In this document: piece by piece, positions 13,530 through 14,006 of the stretch
Numbering within the stretch: the first letter of the stretch is position 1
How the letters are laid out: each line of letters opens with the position of its first letter
Virus record (IMG/VR): IMGVR_UViG_3300021963_000138
Location: 1 to 61,432 of that record
Length of the DNA: 61,432 nt
Reading direction: 5' to 3' (one strand)
Source: a virus
Lineage: Duplodnaviria > Caudoviricetes
Made by a program: the position numbers and the translations under genes
The notes under the pieces: generated by a model
Databases searched by the model: none
What the model was told of the DNA's origin: nothing
What the model saw: only the letters and a program-made list of their open reading frames with translations

Positions 13530-14006
13530 TGTGAGCTGAAGCTCACATTCGTTATCGCTATCGCTCAACGAATTTTCTTTCTTCTAAACATTGTTGATTA
13601 TAATAATTGCGAAGCAATTTAAGTATTATGCAGATTGTTCAGTCATACTTAGCCCTTGCGGGCTAAGAAGCATTATGCGAGTTGCACAGTACATACAGCG
13701 TTATGGCAATTACAGAGGCGGTCATCCGGTACCTCGAGCCACGTCTTATTAATGACGGCGGATTGCTACACAAACGCAGTCTTGTGCAACAACCGTGGGT
13801 TTTTCTCCCATCTTTTAGCCTTGATATAATACTTTCTTGTACAGTAAACCGGTTCTGTAGGCATATCCGATCGTGGTCCTGTTAAGGATACTACTGTACA
13901 ACCCCTCTACCAAGTAGGGAATTCCATTGACTGCGATCCGAGATCCAGCTTTAAGGGCACACTAACAACGCCGGTGCGGGCTTATTTGGCAGTTAAATTG
14001 CCTGAA
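13530..14006 (-). ncRNA. Candidate large structured non-coding RNA / structured element
   Basis: About 510 bp with no credible ORF, GC-richer than its flanks. Contains about 10 hairpins, a GCAA tetraloop, a long-range helix with G-U pairs only on the - strand, and a 7-bp pseudoknot complement. Confidence 0.65.

Follow-up and report, generated by a model that had tools for sequence, protein, structure and literature searches.

The 61,432 bases of IMG/VR virus record IMGVR_UViG_3300021963_000138, here called the window (the whole stretch of DNA that was analyzed), contain a gap of 510 nucleotides (nt) at 13497–14006, which separates the stop codon of a gene for a GIY-YIG protein from the next start codon. 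A preliminary description of this DNA had correctly reported a gap of about 510 bp and had placed a large pseudoknotted non-coding RNA on its minus strand. What does this gap encode, and what might its product do? Comparative sequence analysis showed that the minus strand from ~13995 to 13530 encodes a conserved, stand-alone structured RNA of ~465 nt with three pseudoknots. Thus, the proposed RNA is supported by comparative evidence, namely an Rfam match, covariation and an excess of G-U pairs. The 3′ part of the RNA carries one 7-nt word twice. Our complete reading, to which we give a probability of about 0.5, is that of a stand-alone scaffold RNA of ~465 nt whose twin loops would read a partner that differs between lineages.

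The identity of the RNA was determined by Infernal cmscan of the whole window against Rfam 15, a check that had been suggested earlier. On the minus strand, positions 13837–13982 matched RF01718, Polynucleobacter-1, with 82.7 bits (E 4.9e-16) over model positions 1–141 of 141. The gathering cut-off of this family is 37 bits, and no other match in the window reached a gathering threshold. When 13400–14100 was scanned at E values up to 10, just one further match appeared, a chance snoRNA match of 13.9 bits. The strong Rfam match removes the novelty of the head of the RNA, of which the 5′ 146 nt are a full-length member of RF01718, so that the suggestion of a class new from end to end does not hold; the RNA itself is kept. 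A kinship with GOLLD or ROOL RNAs, offered as the other possibility, found no match to either model at E up to 10. The statement that the element is no tRNA, tmRNA, intron or CRISPR proved correct: ARAGORN detected 0 tRNA or tmRNA genes in the whole window, no Rfam model of a group I or group II intron matched, the RNA is located between complete open reading frames (ORFs), and cmscan yielded neither intron nor CRISPR at E up to 10. In the table of Weinberg et al. 2010 (PMC2864571) Polynucleobacter-1 is entered with "y" for RNA, "y" for cis-regulatory and "?" for switch, and its taxa and habitat are given as Burkholderiales, fresh water or estuary, in agreement with those of the homologues and sequencing runs described below. 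A search on RNA-guided tyrosine recombinases and on GIY-YIG proteins with non-coding RNA of T4-like phages, within the literature available to it, did not bring up the Polynucleobacter-1 RNA.

The full extent of the RNA became apparent from its homologues. A degenerate pattern made from the conserved centre of the motif retrieved at least 119 stretches from IMG/VR, and 102 among those listed are likely true homologues as judged by their flanks. All counts of viral loci given below (102, 86, 62 and 60) are drawn from these listed matches. Two groups can be told apart among the viral homologues, A resembling the window and B diverging from it, with 23 and 41 distinct sequences, respectively, that are complete from −90 to +480. 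The window and 62 viral loci, all full-length and distinct in sequence (63 in total), were aligned with MAFFT L-INS-i, and 512 well-filled columns were kept. In group A as in group B conservation runs from the leader to the last hairpin, ~330 nt past the 3′ end of the Rfam model. By this measure RF01718 is only the 5′ third (146 nt) of an RNA of ~465 nt. The window matches all 141 positions of the model, which is also carried by Polynucleobacter genomes; the model lacks the leader strand of pseudoknot PK1, the core with pseudoknots PK2 and PK3, the twin-box units and the three 3′ hairpins (~330 nt). The interval 13625–14006 given in the preliminary description is a real part of the structured region but leaves out the conserved 3′ hairpins P12–P14 (13531–13619). 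None of 50,697 GenBank phage records was matched by the 510-nt gap in a blastn search in distant mode, and the gap is thus without a close copy in any cultured phage of that collection. The features are listed in Table 1.

Table 1. Features of the structured RNA and of its surroundings in the window. Helices are denoted P and pseudoknots PK. Percentages and double changes refer to the 63 aligned sequences unless another number is given.
Feature	Position	Strand	Remark
Full-length structured RNA, ~465 nt	13530..13995	-	Ends placed by conservation
5′ domain, RF01718 Polynucleobacter-1: P1, P2, P3, three-way junction P4/P4a/P4b	13837..13982	-	cmscan
PK1: leader CUGCCAA (13986-13992) + P3 loop UUGGUAG (13907-13913)	13907..13992	-	Covariation; leader strand outside Rfam model
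Conserved single-stranded linker AGGCUAAAAGA	13811..13821	-	Near-invariant GGC(A/U)AAAAGA in both viral groups
Hairpin P5, UGGG/CCCA	13796..13810	-	4/4 pairs change on both sides, 70.5% paired (22 sequences); moderate support
Long hairpin P6, 13781-13794/13761-13774	13761..13794	-	RNAalifold and covariation
PK2: P6 loop CUGCGUU (13773-13779) + AACGCUG (13696-13702)	13696..13779	-	Covariation
PK3: GUCAU (13752-13756) + AUGAC (13721-13725)	13721..13756	-	Inside invariant GGUACCGGAYRACCGCC core
Nested domain P8 (UGGC/GCCA) + P8b (GAGG/CCUC)	13704..13741	-	RNAalifold and covariation
Twin box 1: CUC + GCAUAAU (word 13672-13678)	13672..13681	-	Loop region, repeat unit 1
Hairpin P10, CUUAGCCC-GCAA-GGGCUAAG	13648..13667	-	Between twin boxes; 83% paired, 3 pairs with double changes
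Twin box 2: UCU + GCAUAAU (word 13625-13631)	13623..13634	-	3′ end and next two bases form P11
Short stem P11, AUAC + GUAU	13623-13626 + 13645-13648	-	91% paired, 0 double changes
Hairpin P12, AAUUG-CUUCG-CAAUU	13605..13619	-	5/5 pairs with double changes, 78% paired
Hairpin P13, conserved loop GAGCGAUAGCGAU	13547..13573	-	6/7 pairs with double changes, 80% paired
Terminal hairpin P14, GUGAGC-UUCA-GCUCAC	13531..13546	-	5/6 pairs with double changes, 91% paired; no U tract after
AAUAAAUA, late-promoter-like box	13518..13525	-	Context, outside RNA; 21 nt 5′ of AUG of next gene
SegE-type GIY-YIG protein, 142 amino acids (aa), catalytic domain only	14007-14435	-	Context; Pfam PF19835, E 1.1e-31, residues 3-129
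Basic 76-aa ORF	14436-14666	-	Context
gp46/SbcC-like gene	14663-16441	-	Context
gp47/SbcD-like gene	16438-17448	-	Context

The helices were evaluated by the percentage of canonical cells in the paired alignment columns, and as a control the partner was slid along the same strand. Among the 63 sequences, 100% of the cells were paired for P1, 96% for P2 and 85% for P3, with double changes, and 98% and 91% for P8 and P8b, respectively. On the MAFFT columns P4 and P4b reached 50% and 63%; cmscan aligns the window with both of them paired, and the low scores are put down to misalignment between groups A and B. In the supported helices 435 G-U cells were counted vs 119 A-C cells. Thus, the RNA is assigned to the minus strand. 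For a second, independent check seven of 29 diverse segments were set aside for their long insertions, which left 22. From these 22, RNAalifold predicted P6, P8 and P8b unaided, and 17 of the 27 predicted pairs were compensatory. The named structure including PK2 and PK3 had 89.0% of its cells paired vs 30.5–45.3% with slid partners. Changes on both sides were observed in 30 of its 36 pairs, and none of 500 shuffles reached any of the five measures; related sequences can beat shuffles without any structure, so that the slid partner is the fairer control. For P6 alone, 12/12 counted pairs changed on both sides with 87% paired in the 22 sequences, and 11/14 pairs had double changes with 86% paired in the 63. 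In the smaller set P8 was 99% paired (3/4 pairs compensatory) and P8b 100% (2/4).

Three pseudoknots are supported by covariation in this alignment; PK2 and PK3 were not among the contacts of the preliminary description. PK1 occurs as a series of covarying duplexes (AACGGU/GCCGUU, GCAGU/GCUGC, AACAGU/GCUGUU, AGCGGU/GCCGCU and CUGCCAA/UUGGYRG) and was 70% paired vs 20–49% with slid partners on the MAFFT columns of the 63 sequences; the length of its best duplex was barely above that of shuffles (6.2 vs 5.5). PK2 was 84% paired in the 63 sequences vs at most 44% slid, with double changes in 7/7 pairs, and 85% paired in the 22 sequences, where 6/7 pairs changed on both sides. In the window itself 6/7 positions of PK2 pair and one is U-U. 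PK3 was 97% paired in the 22 sequences, where 3/5 pairs changed on both sides, and in the 63 sequences one of its column pairs is U-A in 35 and C-G in 28, i.e. 100% canonical.

Several contacts had been drawn before from the single sequence, and they fared differently. The 10-bp helix 13892–13901/13837–13846 with its two sub-hairpins is indeed the outer helix and three-way junction of the Rfam model. The nested domain was equally well founded in its outer helices UGGC/GCCA and GAGG/CCUC, which are confirmed with covariation; the inner CGG/CCG inside P8b shows no variation at all, and the loop AUGAC forms PK3. A 9-bp helix 13965–13973/13696–13704 is present in the window but is not conserved (52% paired vs 32–35% slid in the 63 sequences). 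One proposed hairpin is P6, upheld by covariation, whereas the contact of its loop (13775–13781 with 13929–13935) was abandoned, with 65% paired and 13929–13935 being the 3′ strand of P2. PK2 is the mutual pairing of the segments orphaned by these two failed long-range proposals. Likewise, the stem CUUAGCCC/GGGCUAAG is P10 and is retained, but its GCAA loop of the GNRA type is a local accident: relatives have GUCA, GCCA, GCUA, UGUGC and others. Among the 3′ hairpins, P13 is present in bacterial copies too. A leader hairpin H0 (GGCA/UGCC) was rejected with 31% paired, and a hairpin M7 (CGUC/GACG) was also rejected: it is 88% paired, but its pairs lack compensatory changes, it competes with PK3, and locus L036 has a different hairpin in its place. 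The many G/U-rich 4-bp candidates returned by an automatic stem finder on the MAFFT columns were not trusted. As a separate observation, the linker AGGCUAAAAGA repeats the 3′ strand of P10, GGGCUAAG (13648–13655), and could pair alternatively with the 5′ strand of P10; this match is not consistently kept in relatives, for example locus L013 has U in the linker and A in P10.

The 3′ part of the RNA consists of two similar units on either side of P10, each made up of GU(R)UG..., a short spacer, AA-CUC or AA-UCU, and the 7-nt word. In every viral locus long enough for both words (86 of 86) their variable positions agreed without a mismatch, and 11 variants occurred. This appears in the alignment as covariation of the same letter at a constant offset of 50 columns (A:A 36/G:G 27 at one position, G:G 49/C:C 13/A:A 1 at another). 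When the box columns were left out and a maximum-likelihood tree of 62 sequences was calculated, at least 19 changes of the word had to be placed on it, with box 1 equal to box 2 in 62/62; the tree is from a quick search and the count is approximate, ten states alone requiring nine changes. The boxes are 47–59 nt apart in the phage loci read and 57–72 nt apart in bacterial copies, and their first ~five positions fall outside the short stems that can be defined. Mutual information over the 512 alignment columns revealed no complementary partner column in the RNA for any box column.

How could such a pair of boxes work? In the reading favored here the knotted body, in which PK1, PK2 and PK3 lock the leader, the 5′ domain and the central core together, would be a rigid scaffold, and the two loops with the same 7-nt word would be the functional surface. 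The loops might base-pair with two copies of, or two sites on, one nucleic acid that differs between lineages, and a change of this partner would force both boxes to change together. Base pairing with a nucleic acid specific to the lineage is considered the likeliest account of a word that varies so frequently and in both copies at once; we put it at about one in three within the overall probability given above. Other explanations of the boxes, namely anticodon-loop mimicry, a T-loop, a k-turn, box C/D, a target-site duplication and recombinase core sites with inverted arms, were dropped since the flanks did not fit by eye.

A number of results weigh against the scaffold with twin reading loops. 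Folding stability relative to shuffled controls, a comparison proposed at the outset, came out better than shuffles but modestly so, and did not tell the strands apart: the z score was −2.88 on the minus strand (0/100 shuffles as good) vs −2.38 on the plus strand (2/100). P9, the counterpart of P11 in unit 1, is weak in the window and 71% paired, so that the placement of box 1 in a loop is poorly defined. The complement of the 7-nt word plus two purines, searched on both strands of the 86 loci (759 kb), gave, outside the boxes themselves, scattered hits at no conserved position. One recurrent complement site was located inside gp46, in 8 close relatives only. Flanks of up to ~10 kb (in the window 61 kb) and two bacterial genomes likewise showed no conserved site for the word or its complement, and a box-word search in five bacterial loci matched no target site. 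In two whole Polynucleobacter genomes the hits numbered 15 vs 4 for the reversed control and 13 vs 10, which is near background and without a convincing third site; the word with 15 hits resembles a Shine-Dalgarno sequence. Finally, the words of the bacterial copies are identical in 11 of 17 and differ at 1–2 positions in 6 of 17. Judged from these comparisons, the identity of the boxes is strongly though not absolutely maintained. The unequal boxes belong to loci L250, L251, L255, L256 and L162/L226 (e.g. GGCGAAA vs AGCGAAA, or AACAAAA vs UCCAAAA), and these copies could be evolutionary intermediates or decaying copies.

On the supporting side, parts of the RNA are present in public RNA libraries. 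Six of them hold 10–26% of the sampled words of a 1201-nt stretch, and contigs from four libraries of four studies, compared over 13300–14500, cover parts of 13593–13994. Two of these contigs, 13710–13943 and 13710–13994, differ from the window in no letter. In those four libraries 13300–13586 is uncovered and the cover of the GIY-YIG gene is patchy. Such contigs indicate presence in a library, in which DNA may be present, and carry no strand, ends or abundance. Several of them break at 13709/13710 and 13993/13994, where the relatives diverge, and we read these positions as assembly breaks, not as RNA ends.

The identical loops, 47–72 nt apart and without a complementary nucleic-acid partner, would also suit a dimeric or two-site RNA-binding protein. 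The RNA would then act as CsrB/RsmZ do, as a sponge or as a platform for assembly; those RNAs likewise repeat one short word in several hairpin loops. Candidates would be conserved neighbors, the small basic protein of 76 aa in phages (14436–14666) and the DUF6641 protein in bacteria. We consider this unlikely. In CsrB/RsmZ the word GGA stays the same between species and has a known protein as its reader, whereas 11 variants and at least 19 changes among close relatives (62-sequence tree) exceed what the specificity of a protein usually tolerates. Moreover, the 76-aa ORF went undetected in many group-B loci, and an RNA-binding domain was identified neither in the 76-aa protein nor in DUF6641.

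The genes around the RNA are well conserved in the phages. A GIY-YIG homologue ends shortly 5′ of the RNA in 100 of the 102 viral loci; of the remaining two, one has a flank too short for a judgement and the other gave no GIY-YIG hit. The order gp47-gp46-(76-aa ORF)-GIY-YIG-RNA is conserved as well. The nuclease is 54–100% identical vs 52–98% for gp46. Its conservation thus equals or exceeds that of gp46, which is unlike the behavior of a sporadic homing gene. The family of this mini-nuclease is present in 373 cultured phage records. Four of these were opened (Methylophilales phage Melnitz-3, Sinorhizobium phage phiM12, cyanophage S-SSM4 and Acidovorax phage ACP17), and in 4/4 no RF01718 match was found within 5.4 kb around the nuclease gene, the next feature being 0–195 nt away. 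Thus, the nuclease does not depend on the Polynucleobacter-1 RNA.

The transcription of the RNA in the phage was addressed by the signals in the gap. The nearest sigma-70-like promoter was located at 14666–14638, with none in the stretch from the GIY-YIG gene to the RNA, and no terminator-like site was found inside the gap on the strand of the RNA; P14 is listed for the plus strand only. We infer co-transcription with the gp47-gp46 operon, and the phage RNA would be made by read-through from the early/middle gp47-gp46-GIY-YIG unit. The box AAUAAAUA, which we take to resemble the late-promoter box TATAAATA of T4, has counterparts in the relatives: ATAAATA was present 3′ of the RNA in 45 of 60 distinct relatives and the full TATAAATA in 16 of 60, mostly 17–31 nt before the downstream ATG. 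This sequence pattern suggests that the gene downstream of the RNA has its own late-type promoter.

These data also bear on a role of the RNA as a cis-regulatory leader or riboswitch for the downstream genes. The RNA is located upstream of the next gene on the same strand in phages as well as in bacteria, and the table of Weinberg et al. 2010 (PMC2864571) tentatively points in this direction with its entries "cis-reg y, switch ?". This listing as probably cis-regulatory is not favored by our data, and we regard a leader as improbable. The downstream genes are unrelated, putative head proteins in the phages and in bacteria an integrase 0.35–0.9 kb further on. The late-promoter-like ATAAATA stands between RNA and ATG in the 45 relatives just mentioned, and a terminator-like site on the strand of the RNA is missing from the gap. 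With ~465 nt and three pseudoknots the RNA is far above the size of known leaders, and its fast-changing boxes misfit a conserved ligand pocket.

The bacterial copies place the RNA next to another enzyme. The same pattern retrieved at least 120 stretches from the GTDB species genomes, nearly all of them by chance. Among the matches listed, five are true full-length homologues, from two Polynucleobacter, Limnohabitans, Comamonadaceae and a betaproteobacterial metagenome-assembled genome. All five bear the twin boxes, with the words AGCGAAA, GGAGAAA, AUCGAA and ACCAAAAG. RF01718 scored above its cut-off in 13 of 121 Polynucleobacter genomes, 4 of which contain two copies. Thus, the RNA is sporadic in Polynucleobacter. 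There it is not behind an ORF but in a divergent intergenic region adjoining a DUF6641 protein, which identifies it as a stand-alone gene. A tyrosine recombinase of 188–195 aa is encoded on the same strand 0.35–0.9 kb downstream. It consists of the catalytic domain alone (Pfam PF00589, residues 6–176) and aligns to residues ~104–274 of XerC-like, XerA and XerD structures. The adjacency of DUF6641, RNA and recombinase was observed at every bacterial locus with enough flank, and none of the bacterial copies has a GIY-YIG gene beside the RNA.

Some details of this three-part module, in which DUF6641 is divergent, are recorded here. It occupies 1017–3030 of locus L192, 1–2328 of L165 and 3474–5350 of L162, and is also seen in L247, L248, L252–L254 and L256. 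On contig C1 of genome G110 (~399,400–420,300; L253, L258 and L247) two copies in the same orientation are 18 kb apart, with the words AGCGAAA and AGAGAAA; the genes in these 18 kb are a mixture of the island type without a clear theme, among them those for a 424-aa integrase, an AAA ATPase and an MFS transporter. In the 61-kb window no match to the Pfam families DUF6641 and Phage_integrase was found; the record is 17% complete, and absence from the phage does not follow. A sequence search of the PDB with DUF6641 gave nothing useful.

Both neighboring enzymes, the 142-aa GIY-YIG protein and the 188–195-aa recombinase, are without DNA-binding domains, and one of them adjoins the RNA in 100/102 viral loci and at all bacterial loci with enough flank. 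The RNA might therefore be a guide or specificity subunit of the minimal DNA enzyme beside it, with the twin boxes specifying DNA sites. Tyrosine recombination requires identical overlap regions in both partner DNAs, and this need would explain two identical words. We nevertheless judge a guide to be very unlikely. The nuclease occurs in 373 cultured phage records, and the four opened have neither a long gap nor RF01718 beside it; in bacteria the RNA exists without a GIY-YIG gene, so that co-occurrence of enzyme and RNA is not obligatory. No target that matches or complements the boxes was found in the flanks, and synteny inside one phage lineage is weak evidence. The most speculative and least probable form of this idea is a programmable specificity module for minimal DNA enzymes, in which the loops would hold two DNA partners by a common 7-nt crossover or cleavage core. 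With equally little probability, the recombinase would act in the islands of Burkholderiales and the mini GIY-YIG nuclease in the phages. If true, this would be RNA-guided recombination or homing of an undescribed kind, with the fast-changing word setting lineage-specific targets.

The conserved element could also act as DNA, for example as an origin with iterons or as a packaging or recombination site whose boxes are direct repeats bound by a protein. Co-evolving identical direct repeats are typical of iterons, and the twin boxes are repeats of this kind. The locus lies at the junction of early and late genes, and in bacteria the element is carried by islands with integrases that occur sporadically and in some genomes twice (13/121 Polynucleobacter genomes, 4 with two copies). 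Such a DNA site has as low a probability in our view as the guide. Strand-specific compensatory changes and G-U pairs are not required of DNA sites, the spacing of the boxes is irregular (47–59 nt in the phage loci read, 57–72 nt in the bacterial copies), and the GC-skew minimum near 18 kb is away from the RNA.

The scaffold RNA preferred here was compared with known systems. With GOLLD, ROOL, OLE, HEARO and raiA it shares the size class of >400 nt, multiple pseudoknots and occurrence in phages or mobile elements; none of these families gave an Rfam match here at E up to 10, and there was no sign of common descent. To our knowledge twin identical loops have not been described for any of them. 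The bridge RNA of the IS110 family is likewise a structured non-coding RNA beside a small DNA enzyme and has two loops for two DNA partners sharing a core. It differs in that no complementarity to a donor or target was found here and that the neighboring enzymes are GIY-YIG proteins or tyrosine recombinases; the resemblance is an analogy only.

An orphan motif of 141 nt, listed in 2010 as a probable leader, is thereby redefined as the head of an RNA of ~465 nt which is common to uncultured giant freshwater T4-like phages and to mobile islands of their likely hosts, Polynucleobacter and Limnohabitans. Covariation towards the same letter instead of the complementary one is an unusual signal, and it points to a reader of the twin boxes. 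Large RNAs with several knots and no assigned function are seldom met, and earlier ones have tended to lead to new biochemistry. The carrier of locus L192 is a cultured Polynucleobacter isolate, which makes bench tests possible before any phage is in culture.

The phage itself is characterized by its relatives and its habitats. CheckV estimated a completeness of 17% for the window. Close relatives are carried on contigs of up to 353 kb and, consequently, the window stems from an uncultured giant T4-like phage. DNA runs holding at least 61% of the sampled words are labelled lake, freshwater, estuary or marine metagenome, two of them "fungus metagenome"; these runs come from ten studies, a possible source study not being counted, and the habitats are the labels of the runs. 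Runs with small shares of the words (X17–X20) were left aside when habitats were named.

Near the RNA every gene is on the minus strand. A greedy cover of the window by ORFs reports just 13497–13681 of the gap, as it is confounded by spurious plus-strand ORFs of 57–67 aa. By the same cover, 10717–10960 (244 nt) is the sole other gap of at least 150 nt. On the 3′ side of the 510-nt gap, proteins of 488 aa (12030–13496) and 355 aa (10961–12028) are encoded on the minus strand and belong to no Pfam or PHROG family. By eye their translations have a module of ~30 aa in common, ...YAQVKA(D/N)...LDKK.K.R...LQK..G, at the C-terminus of the 488-aa protein and mid-chain in the 355-aa protein, which outside the module is rich in Ala, Pro and Thr and of low complexity. 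Many phage records, as well as PHROG 447, name homologues of the 142-aa GIY-YIG protein "NAD synthetase". Pfam and the CDD domain cited in the annotation of the phiM12 record indicate a SegE-type GIY-YIG nuclease domain instead, and the label is probably an error passed on between records. Along the window, cumulative GC skew reaches its minimum near 18 kb (~17,500–18,500), ~4 kb from the RNA, and the gene orientation seems to switch near this point.

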